This document shows positions 30,667 through 62,626 of a stretch of 64,000 bases of DNA, piece by piece (positions within the stretch are counted from its first letter, which is position 1; the number at the start of each line of letters is the position of its first letter). The DNA comes from Elusimicrobiota bacterium (GTDB taxonomy: Bacteria; Elusimicrobiota; Elusimicrobia; UBA1565; UBA9628). Below the pieces are notes generated by a model. The model was not told the DNA's origin. It was given only the letters and a program-made list of their open reading frames with translations, and did no database searches. Location of the stretch: assembly GCA_016212855.1 (NCBI GenBank), contig JACRDP010000003.1, forward strand, positions 29,283 through 93,282. Reading direction: 5' to 3'. The position numbers were made by a program, and so were the translations under genes.

Positions 30667-30688
30667 GGCGCGATTATAGCCCTTAACT

Positions 30689-31286: not shown

Positions 31287-31835
31287 ATGTACCTGAAAAG
31301 AACGCCGCTCGCCGCCCTCGTGCTCGCCGCCCTCATGCTCGCCGCCGGCTGCACCCTGTGGCGGGTCCTCGTTCCCGCGTCCCCGTCCGGTGCGCCTGCC
31401 TCGGACGTTTCTGTTCCGGAAGTGACGCCCGAACGACGCAAGGCCGCCTTGTTCTACAGCGACCTGGGGCCGGAGACGGTGGACGCTTCGTCGTACCCGG
31501 CCGAACGAAAGCGCGACTATGAGGTTTACGCGCGGGTTTGCTCGCGCTGCCACACGCTCGCGCGGTCGATCAACGCGCCCTACGTCAGCCGGGGCTGGTG
31601 GGAGTTCTACGTCGCGAGAATGCGCGTGCGGGCGAAATTCCACGGCAAGCCGCTCACCAAGAGCGAGGTGAAGGCCGTCCTCGACTTCCTTGAGTACGAC
31701 TCCAACGAACGCAAGGTCGCGCACGCGGCCGAATTCGACGCGACCAAGGCCGTGCTGAAGCGCCGCTTCGAGGCCGCGCTCGACGAACGCATCGAGGGGC
31801 TCCAAAAGCAGACTCAGCCCCGGCTTATCCCCTAA
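31287..31835 (+). CDS. Lipoprotein with a single CxxCH haem-c motif (paralog 2)
   Basis: Lipobox LAAGC, CSRCH motif, same block order as 30716-31282. Confidence 0.6.
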   Translation: MYLKRTPLAALVLAALMLAAGCTLWRVLVPASPSGAPASDVSVPEVTPERRKAALFYSDLGPETVDASSYPAERKRDYEVYARVCSRCHTLARSINAPYVSRGWWEFYVARMRVRAKFHGKPLTKSEVKAVLDFLEYDSNERKVAHAAEFDATKAVLKRRFEAALDERIEGLQKQTQPRLIP

Positions 31836-31842
31836 AAGAACC

Positions 31843-31882
31843 GGGGCGGGTCGGCTCGCGAGCCGATCCGCCCCGTCTTTTC
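31843..31882. terminator. Bidirectional intrinsic terminator
   Basis: 16-bp stem ggggcgggtcggctcg/cgagccgatccgcccc (one G-U pair). It is followed by tcttttcc on the plus strand and by ttctttt on the minus strand. Confidence 0.8.
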
Positions 31883-31891
31883 CTGCATTCG

Positions 31892-32134
31892 TTAAGAGCC
31901 GGCGAGTTCCTTCTCCTTGGCCGCGAACGTCTTGCGGCCCGTCTCGAGCGCTTCTTTCACCGCCCGGTACTCGACTCGGCCTTTCGCCCTCTTCTCCTTG
32001 AGCCAGAGGCTCAACTCTTCCCTCGTCTCAGACCCCGCCTTCGGCGCGAATAACACGCCGAGCGCGGCTCCGATCACGGTCCCGGAAATGAAATATCCGG
32101 CGTACGACGCCAGCTTGCGCGTATCGTGTTCCAC
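31892..32134 (-). CDS. YtxH-domain protein
   Basis: GAALGVLFAPKAGSETREEL is the YtxH signature. GTG start preceded by GGGAGGG. Confidence 0.75.
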   Translation of the reverse strand: MEHDTRKLASYAGYFISGTVIGAALGVLFAPKAGSETREELSLWLKEKRAKGRVEYRAVKEALETGRKTFAAKEKELAGS

Positions 32135-45318: not shown

Positions 45319-45816
45319 TCAGGCCGGCACGGTGCGCGCGCGACGGCCGAGCTCGCGCAACAGACCCGCCGGAAGGCGGGCGCGCAGCTCCGGGAACACG
45401 ACGTTCTCCTCGTAGACCATATGCGCCTCCAGCTCCTCGCACAGGCGGGAGAGAACGGTGCGCAGGCGGTACACGTGCTCGCCGTCGCCGCTGGCGGCGA
45501 CGGCGCCGAAGAGCTTCGTCATCTCCATGACGGCGCGGTGTCCTTCCTCGATGGCCGCGGACAACGCGGGGTCCATCCCGGCTTGGCGCAGCACCCGCGT
45601 CAAATACGCGTCCTCCATGGCCTCGTGAGCCTTGAACTCCGTGAAGAAGCGGTCCAGCGCGCGCGCGAACAGCTTGCGGTCCGCCGTCGCGCGATCATCC
45701 CACCCGATCCCGCTGGGGCGGTCGATCAGGACGGTCAGAAACGCGAGCGTGCCGCGGAGCTTTCCGTGGCCTTCGAGCAGGCGGTCGATGATATCCATGT
45801 GCCTCCGGACGGGCAT
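45319..45816 (-). CDS. Hemerythrin-like (HHE cation-binding) domain protein
   Basis: Spaced H/E pattern (HGKL..., FKAHEAMED, IEEGHRAV, LEAHMVYEE). The start was chosen at the ATG that coincides with the predicted sigma-54 +1. Longer starts (45864, 46011) overlap the divergent promoter. Confidence 0.6.
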   Translation of the reverse strand: MPVRRHMDIIDRLLEGHGKLRGTLAFLTVLIDRPSGIGWDDRATADRKLFARALDRFFTEFKAHEAMEDAYLTRVLRQAGMDPALSAAIEEGHRAVMEMTKLFGAVAASGDGEHVYRLRTVLSRLCEELEAHMVYEENVVFPELRARLPAGLLRELGRRARTVPA

Positions 45817-45826
45817 CGGGACGGGG

Positions 45827-45842
45827 CGCAACGCTTCGTCCA
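45827..45842 (-). promoter_or_regulatory. Sigma-54-type promoter TGGACGAAGCGTTGCG (hemerythrin)
   Basis: The -12 C (45828) is 12 nt before ATG 45816. Confidence 0.5.
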
Positions 45843-45852
45843 ACGCGACGAT

Positions 45853-45868
45853 TGGCCGGTTCATTGCA
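45853..45868 (+). promoter_or_regulatory. Sigma-54-type promoter TGGCCGGTTCATTGCA (PAS-GGDEF)
   Basis: Near-consensus motif. The -12 C (45867) is 14 nt before GTG 45881. Confidence 0.65.
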
Positions 45869-45880
45869 CACCCGCAGGGC

Positions 45881-46921
45881 GTGAGCCAGGCGGATTTTCC
45901 GGCGCTGTCCATCTCTGCGTGGCAGGTCATCCAGGCCATGCGCGACGGCGTCGTGCTCACCGACCCGCGCGGCTCGATCATGGCCGTCAACGACGTCTTC
46001 TGCGCCGTCACCGGCTACGCGCGGGACGAAGTCATGGGACGAAACCCCCGCCTCCTCCATTCGGGAAGGCACGATCACGCTTTCTACTGCCGCCTGTGGT
46101 CCGACGTCCTGAAAACCGGCGTCTGGCAGGGCGAGATATGGAACCGGCGGAAAAACGGCGAGATCTACCCGGAATGGCTCACGATCAGCTCGATCAAAGA
46201 CGCGTGGGGACACACCCGCTGCTATCTCGGGGTTTTCCGCGACATCACGAGCCCGAAGCTCGATGAAGAACGGCTCAAGCATCTGGCGCAGTACGACGCT
46301 CTCACGAGCTTGCCCAATCGCCGCACCTTCACCGAACGGCTCAAGCGCGTCCTGGCGAACCGTCCGGCGCAGCATCGGCTCGGCATCCTCTTTCTCGACC
46401 TCGACCATTTCAAGGACATCAACGACCGGTGGAGCCACAGCGCGGGCGACGCGTTCCTGCAGGCGGTCGGCGCGCGCCTGCGCTCCTGCGTGCGGCGCAG
46501 CGACTACACGGCGCGCTGGGCGGGAGACGAGTTCGCCGTCCTGCTCCACCCCGTCGCCGGGCGCCGGGGCGCCGCGCGCGTCGCGGCGAAAATACTGCGC
46601 GCCCTGCGGCGGCCGTTCAGCGTTCTGGGCCGCCGGACCAAGATCTCCGCCAGCGTCGGCGTCTGCCTGTACAACGGCGAGGGCTCGGCGGAACGGCTGA
46701 TCGACCGGGCGGACCGGGCGATGTACGCGGTCAAGGAAAAGGGGCGCAACGACGTCGGCTTCTGGTCCTCGGCCGTTTCGTTGCGGCGTCGTTCGGCGAC
46801 CCCTCAGAGAGGGGCCGCCGCAAAGGACGTAAAGAAGGACCGGAACACGCCGCAGGCCCGGACAGGGATGGGGTCCATGAGACGGCGATCCGGAGTTCGT
46901 AAAGGGCCGAGCGGTTCGTAG
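45881..46921 (+). CDS. PAS-GGDEF diguanylate cyclase (motif reads AGDEF). The C-terminal ~55 codons run through the next promoter and leader.
   Basis: PAS region (VLTDPRGSIMAVNDVFCAVTGYARDEV) and GGDEF domain (LFLDLDHFKDINDRWSHSAGD, RWAGDEFAVLL, DRADRAMYAVKEKGRN). Alternative start ATG 45938. Confidence 0.85.
   Translation: MSQADFPALSISAWQVIQAMRDGVVLTDPRGSIMAVNDVFCAVTGYARDEVMGRNPRLLHSGRHDHAFYCRLWSDVLKTGVWQGEIWNRRKNGEIYPEWLTISSIKDAWGHTRCYLGVFRDITSPKLDEERLKHLAQYDALTSLPNRRTFTERLKRVLANRPAQHRLGILFLDLDHFKDINDRWSHSAGDAFLQAVGARLRSCVRRSDYTARWAGDEFAVLLHPVAGRRGAARVAAKILRALRRPFSVLGRRTKISASVGVCLYNGEGSAERLIDRADRAMYAVKEKGRNDVGFWSSAVSLRRRSATPQRGAAAKDVKKDRNTPQARTGMGSMRRRSGVRKGPSGS
46770..46785 (+). promoter_or_regulatory. 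Sigma-54-type promoter CGGCCGTTTCGTTGCG (leader copy 1)
   Basis: Correct GG/GC spacing. Predicted +1 near 46796, 156 nt before ATG 46952. Confidence 0.55.
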
Positions 46922-46951
46922 CCGCCCGGCCTTCCTTTTGGAGCGTTGGAC
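46796..46951 (+). promoter_or_regulatory. Structured 5' leader, copy 1 (candidate riboswitch or attenuator) ending in an intrinsic terminator
   Basis: Hairpin cccctc-aga-gagggg, then the conserved module 46848-46939 shared with 47697-47790 and 55348-55442. The terminator is gggccgagcgg/ccgcccggcc plus ttcctttt (46904-46939). Confidence 0.6.
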
Positions 46952-47581
46952 ATGAGACATCCGTACGCCTACGAGCACGGGAACAATCTCTACGTCAACC
47001 TGACGTCTCTGTGTCCGACCGACTGCGTCTTCTGTCCGAAGCGCGAGTCCGGGCGGCGTTTCCGCGGGCACGACCTCTCGCTCGACGGCGAGCCGGAGCT
47101 CGACGAGATTTGGGCCGACGTGCTCGAGCGCGCCGCGCGACGCTCGTACAGCGAGTTCGTCTTCTGCGGCTACGGCGAGAGCACGTACCGGCTCGACGCG
47201 ATCACCCAGCTCAGCGAGCGCATGAAGAAGTTCTTCCCGCGCAGCGGCCGCCGCCTGAACACGATCGGCCTCGGCAGCATGATTTGGGGACGAGACATCG
47301 TCCCGGAACTGGCCGAGTCGCTGACGAACGTCAGCGTCAGCCTCAATACGGCCGATCCGCGGCAGTGGCGGCGGCTGCACCGGCCGCGCCCCGAGATGCG
47401 CGCGGGAGGCTTCGAGGGAGCGCTCGAATTCGTGCGCTCCTGCGTTCTGTCCGATCTGCGCGCGACGGTGACCGCCGTCGAACTCCCGGGCGTGGATCTG
47501 CCCGCGGTCGAGAGGCTCGCGCGCTCGCTCGGAGCGGAATTCGCCGTGCGCCCCCGGCTGACGGCCGCCGAGACGAGCTGA
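46952..47581 (+). CDS. Small radical-SAM protein
   Basis: CPTDCVFC is the CX3CX2C 4Fe-4S/SAM motif near the N-terminus. GGAG lies 8 nt before ATG 46952 (the ORF track starts at TTG 46946). Confidence 0.75.
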   Translation: MRHPYAYEHGNNLYVNLTSLCPTDCVFCPKRESGRRFRGHDLSLDGEPELDEIWADVLERAARRSYSEFVFCGYGESTYRLDAITQLSERMKKFFPRSGRRLNTIGLGSMIWGRDIVPELAESLTNVSVSLNTADPRQWRRLHRPRPEMRAGGFEGALEFVRSCVLSDLRATVTAVELPGVDLPAVERLARSLGAEFAVRPRLTAAETS

Positions 47582-47596
47582 GACGTTTTGTTGCGG
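47581..47596 (+). promoter_or_regulatory. Degenerate sigma-54-like element GAGACGTTTTGTTGCG (leader copy 2)
   Basis: The -12 half is conserved, but the -24 position reads AG instead of GG. Confidence 0.3.
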
Positions 47597-47606
47597 CATT
47601 GAGGGC

Positions 47607-47790
47607 GCCGAGGGACAATCAGGGGTGAGCCCCCTCCCCGGCACCCAAGGCCCTCTCAGAGAGAGGGCGCCGGAAAGACGGCGTCGGACCGGAAACTGCC
47701 GCGGGCCCGGACAGGAACGGGGTCCTTGAGACGGCGATCCGGAGTGAGTAAAGGGCCGAGCGGTTCGTAGCCGCCCGGCCTTCCTTTTTT
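47607..47790 (+). promoter_or_regulatory. Structured leader, copy 2 (longest version) ending in an intrinsic terminator
   Basis: Extra hairpins agggg-tgag-cccct and ccctctc-aga-gagaggg, then the conserved module 47697-47790. The terminator stem at 47753-47782 is followed by a U-tract (tt cc tttttt). Confidence 0.6.
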
Positions 47791-47802
47791 CCCCGCCCCC
47801 CC

Positions 47803-47818
47803 CGGCCGAAACGTTGCG
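47803..47818 (+). promoter_or_regulatory. Sigma-54-type promoter CGGCCGAAACGTTGCG (methyltransferase)
   Basis: Located just 3' of the copy-2 terminator. The -12 C (47817) is 13 nt before GTG 47830. Confidence 0.55.
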
Positions 47819-47829
47819 GTCAGTGCTGC

Positions 47830-49026
47830 GTGAAGAAGACCATGCAAACCGTCGTTTCCCCGGGCGTCGGCAACACCCGCTCCGAGGCCTTCGTCAACGT
47901 CGCCGACCGCAACACCTACGCGTGGTGGGCGATTCTTCTGGCCTCGGTGGCCCTCGCCGGAACGGTGGGCCCGCTCGGCGGCTTCTTCTGGGTCGCCGCG
48001 CTCGCTCTCGACGACGTTCTCCTCTGGGGGTTCGGAAAATCCCTCCTGTTCGATTCGCAGCTGCGGGTGCGCCGCAACTACCAGTGGATACACAATCTGT
48101 ACGACGGCACCACGGGAGCCGGCCGTGACCTGGGCTTCAACCTGCTGACCGGCGGCCGCCTGTCCCAGCGCGCGAAGTACGAGCACATGGCCAAGGCGCT
48201 CGGCCTGCGTAAGGGCATGCGCATCTGCGACGTCGGCTGCGGATACGGCGACTGGCTCCGGTATTGCCGCGAAGAGCTCGGCTGCGAGGCCGTGGGGATC
48301 AACCTGACGCCCGAGCAGGCCGCCTACGCCCGCCGCGAGTACGGCCTCGAGGTGCACACGACGAACTGGAAGGACATCCCCGGCGATACGCTCCTCCGGG
48401 CGAGGCTGTACGGCCGCTTCGACGCCGTCACCTTCATGGACACCGTCGAGCACTACGTCAGCATGGAGGACCGCGACGATCTCCCCAAGCAGCGCGCGAT
48501 CTACTCCGACATGTGCCGGCTGGCCGCGGACCTGATCGACCCGAATTCCCCTTCGGGGCGTGTGTTCGTCTCCTGCCTGCACCAGACGCGCAGGCCGCGC
48601 GGCTGGAAGTTCTATTGGCACGCCTACTTCATGGACAAGATGTACTCCGGCCATTATCCCTTCGTCGACGAAGGCCCGCTCGCGGCGTGCCGGCCCTGGT
48701 TCGACGTGCTGGACATCGAGGACCGGACCGAGGACTACCGGCTGACCGGCGTCGTGGACCGCAGCCACTTCCAGGCCGTGTCCGTCCGGCCGACGCCGCG
48801 CAAAGCGGCGTACGCGGCCGCCCTGATGCTCCTCGATCCGCACGTCCTGCACCGGCTGATGTACTACGCCTGCGACTCCTGGATGTTCTTCTACGGCGAC
48901 GACCCTTACAGCCCGGAGTACGATCCGGAGCGCCGCCGGAAAACGAGCTACGTCCTGCTCTACTGGATCACGTTGGAGCTGAAGCGAGGAGGACGTCATG
49001 GGCGCGCCATTTCCGCACCGCTATGA
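47830..49026 (+). CDS. SAM-dependent methyltransferase, cyclopropane-fatty-acid/mycolic-acid synthase family, with an N-terminal TM segment
   Basis: SAM motif I ICDVGCGYGDW and CMAS-like length and layout. Alternative start ATG 47842. Confidence 0.8.
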   Translation: MKKTMQTVVSPGVGNTRSEAFVNVADRNTYAWWAILLASVALAGTVGPLGGFFWVAALALDDVLLWGFGKSLLFDSQLRVRRNYQWIHNLYDGTTGAGRDLGFNLLTGGRLSQRAKYEHMAKALGLRKGMRICDVGCGYGDWLRYCREELGCEAVGINLTPEQAAYARREYGLEVHTTNWKDIPGDTLLRARLYGRFDAVTFMDTVEHYVSMEDRDDLPKQRAIYSDMCRLAADLIDPNSPSGRVFVSCLHQTRRPRGWKFYWHAYFMDKMYSGHYPFVDEGPLAACRPWFDVLDIEDRTEDYRLTGVVDRSHFQAVSVRPTPRKAAYAAALMLLDPHVLHRLMYYACDSWMFFYGDDPYSPEYDPERRRKTSYVLLYWITLELKRGGRHGRAISAPL

Positions 49027-50501: not shown

Positions 50502-53025
<2,524 letters not shown>

Positions 53026-53036
53026 TCCCTCGATAA

Positions 53037-53052
53037 GGCAACGATCCGGCCA
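53037..53052 (-). promoter_or_regulatory. Sigma-54-type promoter TGGCCGGATCGTTGCC (P-type ATPase)
   Basis: The -12 C (53038) is 13 nt before ATG 53025. The core is identical to the rhodanese promoter. Confidence 0.6.
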
Positions 53053-53085
53053 CGGCCGCCGTCGCGGCGGTTTAGCAGCCGTTAT

Positions 53086-53101
53086 TGGCCGGGATGTTGC
53101 G
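53086..53101 (+). promoter_or_regulatory. Sigma-54-type promoter TGGCCGGGATGTTGCG (hsp20-ubiB)
   Basis: Predicted +1 near 53112, giving a 19-nt leader with GGGAGGGAGG before ATG 53131. Confidence 0.6.
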
Positions 53102-53130
53102 CCCCGGATTGCGACGGGAGGGAGGACGCC

Positions 53131-53607
53131 ATGGCCATCAAACATGCGGTAAAAAAAAGCAACGGTTCGGCGTGGGAGCCGGTGCACGACATCTTGGAGG
53201 GGGTCGAGCAGGCCGTGGCCGGAGGCTGGTACCCGGCGCGCAATCTGCTGCTCTCCCGCCTGGCCGAGGCCGCGCGCCCGCAACTGGCCGCGTGGGTCCC
53301 GGAGGCCGACCTTGAGGAAACCCCGAGCGAGTTCACGGTCTCCTTCGCCCTTCCGGGCGTCGACAAGGCCGACATCCGCGTGAATGTGACGGAGGACACG
53401 CTGACCGTCAGCGGCCGCCGCCGCGACAACGAGAAAGCCCGCGACGAACGCCGGCGCGAGTTGCCGCGCGGCGAGTTTTTGCGCCGCGTCAGGCTTCCGG
53501 ACGAGGTCAAACCCGCGTCCGCGAAGGCCGCCTGCCGCAACGGCGTTCTGCGCGTCGTGCTTGAGCGCGCCCGCGTCCGCGCCGGGCGCAGCGTGAAAGT
53601 CGACTGA
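53131..53607 (+). CDS. Hsp20/alpha-crystallin small heat-shock protein
   Basis: Alpha-crystallin domain (FTVSFALPGVDKADIRVNVTEDTLTVSGRR ... GVLRVVL). Confidence 0.85.
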   Translation: MAIKHAVKKSNGSAWEPVHDILEGVEQAVAGGWYPARNLLLSRLAEAARPQLAAWVPEADLEETPSEFTVSFALPGVDKADIRVNVTEDTLTVSGRRRDNEKARDERRRELPRGEFLRRVRLPDEVKPASAKAACRNGVLRVVLERARVRAGRSVKVD

Positions 53608-55300: not shown

Positions 55301-55320
55301 CGGACGCCCTGGACGCGCCG

Positions 55321-55336
55321 AGGCCGTATTGTTGCG
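55321..55336 (+). promoter_or_regulatory. Sigma-54-type promoter AGGCCGTATTGTTGCG (leader copy 3)
   Basis: Correct spacing. Predicted +1 near 55347. Confidence 0.5.
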
Positions 55337-55346
55337 ACATCGTTGG

Positions 55347-55481
55347 GCGCCGCAGGGCCCGGACAAGAGCCGGGCCCGTCAGTCGGCGATCCGGAGCGAC
55401 GCAAAGGGCCGAGCGGTTTCGCGACCGCCCGGCCTTCCTTTGCTCGCCGGCGCGGCCGGTCCGGTATCCAATGGGGGCGAA
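55347..55481 (+). promoter_or_regulatory. Structured leader, copy 3 (minimal version) with an intrinsic terminator
   Basis: Helix cgccg (55348-52) / cggcg (55384-88) encloses the hairpin gggcccgg-acaagag-ccgggccc. The tail tccgg is complementary to ccgga. The terminator is at 55406-55442. Confidence 0.6.
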
Positions 55482-57034: not shown

Positions 57035-57049
57035 GGTCTCCATGTTGCG
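57034..57049 (+). promoter_or_regulatory. Sigma-54-like element CGGTCTCCATGTTGCG pointing antisense into the CBS gene
   Basis: Correct GG/GC spacing and abuts the minus-strand promoter. No credible plus-strand gene lies downstream. Confidence 0.3.
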
Positions 57050-60258: not shown

Positions 60259-60345
60259 GGAAAGGTGACCGAGTGGTTGAAGGTAGCAGTCTCGAAAACT
60301 GCCAGGGATGCAAGTCCCTCGAGGGTTCGAATCCCTCCCTTTCCG
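60259..60345 (+). tRNA. tRNA-Ser (anticodon CGA)
   Basis: Acceptor stem ggaaagg/cctttcc, anticodon stem gcagt/actgc with loop cuCGAaa, a long variable arm and a T arm gaggg-ttcgaat-ccctc. 87 nt; CCA not encoded. Confidence 0.9.
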
Positions 60346-62552: not shown

Positions 62553-62626
62553 TGGAGCGGGCGAAGGGAATCGAACCCTCGTCTGATCCTTGGCAAGGAC
62601 CCGTTCTACCATTGAACCACGCCCGC
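62553..62626 (-). tRNA. tRNA-Gly (anticodon GCC), CCA encoded
   Basis: The reverse complement reads gcgggcg-tg-gttcaatggtagaac-gggtcc-ttGCCaa-ggatc...gagggttcgattccc-ttcgcccgc-t-cca. Confidence 0.9.

Follow-up and report, generated by a model that had tools for sequence, protein, structure and literature searches.

A conserved multi-copy RNA family of Elusimicrobiota with the predicted layout of small RNA genes at gene 3' ends

What do the structured repeats encode that recur between genes in a 64,000-nucleotide stretch of an Elusimicrobiota bacterium (assembly GCA_016212855.1, contig JACRDP010000003.1, positions 29,283 to 93,282; hereafter the window)? The initial annotation had seen in them a candidate new family of riboswitch or attenuator leaders. 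We regard the element as a previously undescribed, strongly conserved, multi-copy RNA family of one uncultivated Elusimicrobiota clade. We put at roughly 0.5 the probability that its copies are small-RNA genes which run from their own promoter to a terminator at the 3' ends of other genes, would share that terminator with the upstream mRNA and would act at some loci, secondarily, as attenuating leaders.

The window contains three plus-strand copies of a module of about 95 nt, at 46848-46939 (W1), 47697-47790 (W2) and 55348-55442 (W3), which align with a mean column identity of 86%. Alignment, a covariance model and an exact-word search agree on these positions, which are those first proposed. 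The covariance model built from W1-W3 finds all three again at 100-119 bits (E-values of 1e-19 to 1e-23 in the 64-kb window) and nothing comparable elsewhere in the window, and two invariant words of 13 and 14 nt, CGGCGATCCGGAG and AAAGGGCCGAGCGG, occur within it only at the three sites. A weak model match at 31835-31933 on the minus strand was dismissed as an unrelated hairpin; the segment 31791-31933 holds a GC-rich, bidirectional terminator-like hairpin (GGGGCGGAUCGGCUCGCGAGCCGACCCGCCCC) between convergent open reading frames (ORFs), whose sequence has no relation to that of the element.

No known RNA family accounts for the module. An Rfam 15 scan of the whole window at gathering thresholds returned two tRNA genes as its sole matches (60259-60345, plus strand; 62556-62626, minus strand), in keeping with the initial annotation, which had recognised no known riboswitch class. 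Permissive scans in E-value mode of W1-W3 and one long form of the element gave noise (best score 19 bits, where the gathering score is 70), and a scan of eight related loci gave nothing. A resemblance in short words to the guanidine-III and S-adenosylhomocysteine riboswitches found no support in these scans. Nor does the module look like a coding sequence: indels between the copies break all frames, the three-frame translations differ from one another, and stops interrupt all three frames of the W1 and W2 cores (TGA 46878, TAA 46900 and TAG 46919 in W1), although not of W3. A literature search on sigma-54, riboswitches and RNA motifs in Elusimicrobia yielded nothing relevant on such an RNA.

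Homologues were sought with the covariance model in contigs that encode close orthologues of two neighbouring proteins, a TatD-associated radical SAM protein and a ribF-like protein. The first of these, as encoded in the window, is 100% identical to a protein of an Elusimicrobiota metagenome-assembled genome. Six further copies were recovered from related metagenomic contigs, giving nine in total from at least five related Elusimicrobiota genomes or contigs. Two of the six lie downstream of the radical SAM gene, in L007 (10709-10809) and in L017 (5517-5589; duplicate contig L018), where the core has shrunk to a small hairpin. The others lie downstream of a beta-CASP nuclease gene in L016 (3893-3979, truncated where the contig stops), upstream of a beta-CASP gene in L028 (6689-6786), between a PAS-GGDEF gene and ribF in L021 (9865-9962) and upstream of ribF in L022 (330-432), a relative that is 95% identical. 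Scans with exact patterns found five chance matches in public genome contigs, all in unrelated taxa, and the L007 contig plus chance matches in metagenome contigs, where the patterns were possibly too strict. A protein search with the three-frame translations of the element returned the window's own GGDEF protein alone, low-complexity words having saturated the selection of candidates.

Between genomes the core is 0.85-0.89 identical, compared with 0.72-0.80 for the nucleotide sequence of adjacent genes and 0.55-0.65 for their third codon positions. Because core identity exceeds that of both, we conclude that the element is under purifying selection. The comparison proposed at the outset thus succeeded in finding homologues that are conserved above the level of their neighbours, but it provided next to no covariation in any of the helices, owing to a core that is almost constant: the bases pair in 94-97% of cells, and the compensatory pairs number 0-2, one of them in the P1 helix of the degenerate L017 copy and one in a stem extension.

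All nine units open with the same promoter motif, RGCCGTTTYGTTGCRAC, whose general form is RGCCG-N5-GTTGC. Its GG-N10-GC spacing is like that of sigma-54 promoters, and neither this spacing nor the TTGC varies. In the -24 half, W1, W3 and L007 have GGCCG and the remaining six AGCCG or AGACG (the sigma-54 consensus is TGGCAC-N5-TTGC). In the window the motif lies at 46769-46788 for W1 (TCGGCCGTTTCGTTGCGGCG; 22.9 bits), inside the 3' tail of a PAS-GGDEF ORF, at 47579-47598 for W2 (TGAGACGTTTTGTTGCGGCA), where it overlaps the TGA that ends the radical SAM gene, and at 55320-55339 for W3 (GAGGCCGTATTGTTGCGACA; 21.7 bits). These scores come from a position weight matrix trained on gene-proximal motif sites only. 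The element motifs score 20-25 bits on it, comparable to gene promoters, with the exception of W2, which has a weaker -24 half and reaches 13.4 bits. The matrix finds 16 sites in the window compared with 3.3 in shuffled sequence, mostly 0-50 nt before ORF starts; the same motif precedes many ordinary genes of the window and its relatives at this distance, with short leaders. The earlier observation that the other motif sites in the window have a short leader or none is borne out: a start codon follows them within about 0-50 nt.

Downstream of the motif the units carry two to five hairpins and come in three forms that differ by the deletion of whole modules. The long form (W2, L016, L021, L028 and, with a reduced core, L017) consists of a D1 hairpin, an HP hairpin, a linker and the core; the medium form (W1, L007) lacks D1; and the short form (W3, L022) is the core only. 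The deletions are clean and are flanked by short direct repeats of the GCGCCG type. In all three forms the first helix begins at the predicted +1, about 12 nt after GTTGC, or within a few nucleotides of it. The HP hairpin corresponds to the CCCUC..GAGGG hairpin that had been noticed in copies 1 and 2, and both copies do contain it. In W1 (46794-46820) it reads CGGCGACCCCUC-AGA-GAGGGGCCGCCG, is 92% complementary and stands about 12 nt after GTTGC, at the predicted start; the L007 version is perfect and has a U-A pair where W1 has C-G. In W2 it occupies 47649-47671 and is preceded by D1 at 47603-47646 (GGGCGCCG..GGGACAAU..GGGGUGAGCCCC..CGGCACCC), a module shared with L016, L021, L028 and L017.

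The core folds into a hairpin of stacked helices, P0, P1 and P2. P1 is the CGCCG/CGGCG helix of the first description, with the U-G pair in copy 2 as noted there, and P2 is the GGCCC/GGGUC hairpin, which in copy 3 is lengthened to GGGCCCGG/CCGGGCCC; both were found again. In W1 the core spans 46840-46893, with P0 formed by CCGGA (46840-44) and UCCGG (46889-93), P1 by CGCCG (46848-52) and CGGCG (46883-87), and P2 closed by the loop GGACAGGGAU. In W2 it spans 47689-47742 (CCGGA 47689-93, UGCCG 47697-701, CGGCG 47732-36, UCCGG 47738-42). The W3 core (55346-55394; z = -3.75) starts at the predicted +1, with P1 at 55348-52 and 55384-88 and a P2 that is a perfect stem of 8 bp (55355-62 with 55370-77). 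A pseudoknot between the 3' UCCGG and a CCGGA in or next to the inner hairpin, as first suggested, had to be given up: the pairing is broken in two homologues (CCAGA; UCCGC), the partner having mutated to CCAGA in L016 and L021, and in the medium and long forms UCCGG pairs better with the CCGGA of the linker. According to the folding of these forms it is this P0 pairing that extends P1 and P2 to a single three-tier hairpin. GGA motifs, examined with a CsrA-type sponge in mind, are about 2- to 2.5-fold enriched in the medium and long forms and are unconserved in the P2 loop.

Each unit ends in a 3' hairpin of -17.7 to -22.4 kcal/mol with 5-8 U in the next 10 nt. In W1 this is GGGCCGAGCGG-UUCGUA-GCCGCCCGGCC (-18.4 kcal/mol; stem to 46931) followed by UUCCUUUU, together 46904-46939; in W2 it covers 47753-47790 (stem to 47780, then UUCCUUUUUU) and in W3 55406-55442 (stem to 55434, then UUCCUUUG). 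The stem is identical in six of the eight aligned copies with a full core, and L016 and L028 differ only by AG>GA in the 5' arm. A GC-rich hairpin directly before a U-tract is what would be expected of an intrinsic (Rho-independent) terminator, and the initial annotation had described it as such, with a 12-bp stem. The hairpin of about -18 kcal/mol and the tract UUCCUUU(U) stand, but the stem holds a conserved A.C mismatch, because of which a simple terminator scanner misses it.

We then considered how the units are placed relative to genes. All nine are co-oriented with the genes that flank them, and all nine start 0-25 nt past the stop codon of a co-oriented upstream gene or overlap it; at least five different genes have a copy of the RNA family behind them. 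The window, L007 and L017 all carry a copy behind the radical SAM gene, a position retained at 70-72% protein identity, and the gene that follows at this locus differs each time (a methyltransferase, a HisKA gene or a non-coding stretch). Beyond the element, a second promoter motif stands 10-45 nt past the terminator in four of the nine units (W2, L007, L028 and probably L017). The one behind W2 (CCGGCCGAAACGTTGCGGTC, 47802-47821) belongs to a CMAS-like methyltransferase gene and lies 20 nt before its ATG at 47842. Since this separate promoter motif follows its terminator hairpin, W2 reads as a closed transcription unit, and the statement that each copy is placed between a sigma-54-type element and a start codon is correct for copies 1 and 3 and fails for copy 2.

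On these grounds we favour a model that treats every repeat as a complete small-RNA gene in its own right, with a non-coding product of about 95-190 nt. The transcript would begin about 12 nt past RGCCG-N5-GTTGC, at the base of the first helix, and the RNA would fold into the optional D1 and HP hairpins, the P0-P1-P2 hairpin and the 3' hairpin, ending at the latter's nearly invariant GC-rich stem and U-tract. Because the unit lies directly after the upstream stop codon or overlaps it, the same hairpin would also end the transcript of the upstream gene. For copies 1 and 3, which have no second promoter, the next gene would be reached only by read-through of an imperfect terminator, so that the unit would secondarily serve as an attenuating leader. 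The RNA itself would presumably work in trans, by base-pairing or by protein binding, under the control of the promoter's activator. At the sequence level, each unit has a promoter motif and a terminator-like hairpin of its own and is conserved apart from the downstream gene. Several observations weigh against this model. In W1, W3, L021 and L022 no promoter can be seen from the terminator to the next gene, as in a cis-acting leader, and a pairing that would prevent the terminator from forming exists in silico. The U-tract has a break in it (UUCCUUU), and the terminator scanner passes over the hairpin because of the stem mismatch. The -24 half is often AG rather than GG, which makes dependence on sigma-54 uncertain; promoter, start site and termination are all predictions; and a search for a target or seed region identified none.

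The alternative pairing brings us back to the proposal that the element is a cis-acting transcription attenuator or riboswitch. Here the folded P0-P1-P2 hairpin would sense a ligand, a protein or the ribosome and allow the terminator to form, whereas its freed 5' strand would act as an antiterminator and permit read-through into the radical SAM gene or ribF. The candidate antiterminator is a 9-bp duplex between the 5' strand of P1/P2 (CCGC-A-GGCCC, segment 1) and the 5' arm of the terminator (GGGCC-GA-GCGG, segment 3). At -20.9 to -22.3 kcal/mol it matches the terminator's own arms in strength and ranks in the top 0.1-0.35% of 16-mers in the window. It is possible in 97% of cells across eight copies and is the minimum-free-energy fold in three of eight transcripts truncated before the 3' arm (W1, L021 and L022, as opposed to W2, W3, L007 and L028), and the near-invariance of segments 1, 3 and 4 would fit a constraint from multiple partners. 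The absence of a promoter motif between terminator and start codon in W1, W3, L021 and L022 is what such a leader predicts, and leaves those genes to read-through or to transcription from upstream. In W1 and L021 ribosomes on the GGDEF ORF would travel as far as the hairpin or enter it, a possible link between translation and read-through; translation through the element could likewise suppress the termination of transcripts that arrive from upstream. Yet there is no covariation for the segment 1:segment 3 pairing, because all columns involved are invariant, and L016 and L028, through their AG>GA change in the terminator arm, have a weaker version of it without compensation. With about 80 upstream 16-mers available per unit, we estimate the chance that a partner in the top 0.3% arises by accident at about 0.1-0.25. 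L017 has lost P2 and the antiterminator strand but retains the promoter, D1, HP and the terminator. No Rfam family matches, and four of the nine units are followed by a promoter that belongs to the downstream gene. The downstream genes themselves (radical SAM, CMAS-like methyltransferase, ribF, HisKA, beta-CASP nuclease) are unrelated and do not share one pathway or ligand, and ribF orthologues in equally close relatives do without the element: the promoter motif occurs with the element before ribF in the window, L022 and L021, and without it in L019, L025, L023 and L028. What survives of the leader hypothesis is therefore a paralogous, conserved and structured RNA between a promoter motif and a terminator-like hairpin; as a general explanation for the units it is not supported, in view of the downstream promoters, the unrelated genes, the ribF loci that lack the element and the near-absence of covariation. 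We consider a primarily cis-acting role possible but on the whole doubtful. Its most specific version, with P0-P1-P2 as the sensor of a new attenuator or riboswitch class in Elusimicrobiota, the 5' strand as antiterminator, and the closed units as orphan copies or recruited small RNAs, strikes us as rather unlikely.

The multi-copy nature of the element, with three copies in 64 kb, also raises the question of whether it is a dispersed cassette of the Correia or MITE (miniature inverted-repeat transposable element) type, spread by recombination, selectively neutral, with an RNA that does nothing in itself and that would insulate or attenuate neighbouring genes only incidentally. Its forms are related by clean internal deletions at direct repeats; close relatives differ in whether they have it at ribF; L016, L021 and L028 place it differently with respect to the GGDEF, ribF and beta-CASP genes; and the GGDEF ORFs of W1 and L021 have no stop of their own and run into it. 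The module deletions and the patchy presence at ribF indicate that the cassette has been gained, lost or shuffled over time, and the latter allows for some mobility. As a complete account of the element this is nevertheless improbable in our view, since we found internal hairpins only and neither the terminal inverted repeats nor the target duplications of MITE, REP (repetitive extragenic palindromic) or Correia elements, and since the nine copies never depart from the orientation of their flanking genes, three genomes retain the place behind the radical SAM gene, conservation far above third-position identity implies purifying selection, and the distance from promoter to first helix is fixed. 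The placement at stop codons is equally what would be expected if the units were merely elaborate 3' terminators or stabilisers of the upstream genes, with the promoter motif coincidental or unrelated, and it is true that the hairpin and U-tract are the most conserved part and the sole core feature left in L017. Such a view would leave unexplained why every unit has the motif at a constant spacing from its first helix and with a score typical of true gene promoters, and why a plain terminator should need 60-150 nt of conserved structure upstream; other terminators of the window, such as that at 31835-31933, are unrelated in sequence. We rate it as very unlikely.

Under the small-RNA model one close parallel would be the Qrr RNAs of Vibrio, which depend on sigma-54 and LuxO. 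Like the element, they occur as several paralogues of about 100 nt per genome, each with its own sigma-54-type promoter (in the element, a motif with GG-N10-GC spacing) and intrinsic terminator (in the element, a terminator-like hairpin), and their sequence is conserved far above that of neighbouring genes. The element differs in having no sequence or Rfam relationship to Qrr, in its modular long, medium and short forms and in a -24 half that is often AG rather than GG. In their genomic placement the units resemble 3'-end small RNAs of the DapZ/MicL type. These enterobacterial RNAs have their own promoter, share a terminator with the upstream mRNA, are single-copy and are tied to one host gene. 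The element is similar in that its promoter overlaps the end or stop of the upstream ORF, a shared terminator hairpin is predicted and co-orientation is complete, but here one RNA family stands behind at least five different genes. Copies 1 and 3 share with terminator-type riboswitches and attenuators the order of promoter, structured domain, terminator hairpin and gene, and a strand that could compete for the 5' arm of the terminator. Unlike these, the element matches no known class; the genes behind it form no coherent regulon, its helices show hardly any covariation, close relatives dispense with it at ribF, and in four of nine cases it does not directly precede the gene it would control. 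With the Correia elements (MITEs of Neisseria) it has in common a multi-copy, intergenic character, a size of about 100-200 bp, full-length and internally deleted forms and a potential to affect the transcription of neighbours, in contrast to which it has no terminal inverted repeats that we could find, is fixed in orientation, occupies syntenic positions across species and is apparently present at low copy density. Finally, the cuckoo or CcsR-type RNAs of alpha-proteobacteria (RF02791) are likewise paralogous, hairpin-rich small RNAs with several copies per genome, but the element has no CCUCCUCCC loop motif, and its match to CcsR1 is noise (13 bits on the opposite strand, where the gathering score is 65).

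To our knowledge, RNA-based regulation has not been described in Elusimicrobiota, a largely uncultivated phylum. A well-delimited RNA family under strong selection and with a clear promoter-to-terminator anatomy provides a concrete handle on it, and the element also exposes what may be the dominant promoter type of this lineage, with its sigma-54-like spacing and very short leaders. Were the copies sigma-54-type small RNAs, they would constitute an independent parallel to the Qrr-type regulators; were they attenuators, a new cis-regulatory class. Their immediate value is for annotation, as the element is the cause of a mis-extended GGDEF protein model.

This concerns the PAS-GGDEF ORF at 45632-46921 (plus strand), which has no stop until the TAG at 46919-46921 in the loop of the W1 hairpin, as had been pointed out. 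The GGDEF domain ends near 46750, and beyond it the promoter motif and the RNA element supply the last ~50 codons. The same arrangement is seen in two genomes, in which a PAS-GGDEF ORF without its own stop reads through the element for about 50-60 codons (46751-46921 in the window; L021:9740-9922). The public annotation, P0241 (374 aa), includes the element-derived tail, which probably has no function in the protein.

The downstream genes are those first assigned. The TatD-associated radical SAM gene (46952-47581, plus strand) has its ATG 13 nt past the U-tract of W1, with no promoter motif between them. W2 precedes the CMAS-like methyltransferase gene, and W3 the gene for a FAD_syn (ribF-like) protein, whose start (55482 or 55500) likewise follows with no promoter motif in between; an ABC1 kinase gene precedes this FAD_syn gene in the window. 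Gene order around the element is rearranged, in that the radical SAM gene follows the GGDEF gene in the window and adjoins a nitrous-oxide reductase cluster in relatives. This cluster, nosZ-nosD-nosF-nosY-nosL, was found beside the gene in L006/L021, L007/L008/L009, L017 and L023. The radical SAM orthologues of L006 and L016 have a promoter motif directly upstream; that of L007 overlaps nosL and has no leader. The non-coding stretch behind the degenerate L017 copy is about 430 nt long (L018:2050-2480, equivalent to L017:5590-5891) and contains repeated TTGTGCCATTT(T/C)TGTGCCA words. ARAGORN found no tRNA or tmRNA in this stretch, within which L018:2298-2366 is a sub-threshold tRNA-like segment (25.6 bits against a gathering score of 29).

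The promoter motif was also followed beyond the element. In the form (T/R)GGCCG-N5-GTTGC it precedes ordinary genes of the window at 30688, 39374, 45142 (both strands), 45852, 47802, 53085 and 57648 on the plus strand, with minus-strand sites at 57035, 53053, 45843, 37069 and 34248. A sigma-70-type promoter was not found in 11 kb, and the lineage may use the sigma-54-like type very widely, with very short leaders. Relatives encode proteins with Sigma54_DBD and Sigma54_activat domains. Among them is a protein of 359-362 aa with a match to Sigma54_DBD only (L019:4769-5848, L020:109-1188, L021:4066-5154), encoded as the divergent neighbour of a PAS-HisKA kinase and a response regulator of the sigma-54-activator type; this short protein may be an unusual RpoN-like factor tied to the promoter motif. 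At L019:13073-13352 the motif lies in the 3' end of another PAS-GGDEF gene and is followed by about 280 nt of unannotated sequence and then by a PhyH-like gene. This stretch, which has no sequence relationship to the element, may represent another leader or small RNA. The last case lies within a 712-aa ORF of the window (51469-53607) that has an HSP20 domain at its C-terminus only. The motif at 53085 is located 26 nt before the ATG of a 158-aa ORF inside it, which suggests that the real gene is that of a small heat-shock protein and that the 712-aa ORF is an artefact of GC-rich sequence.

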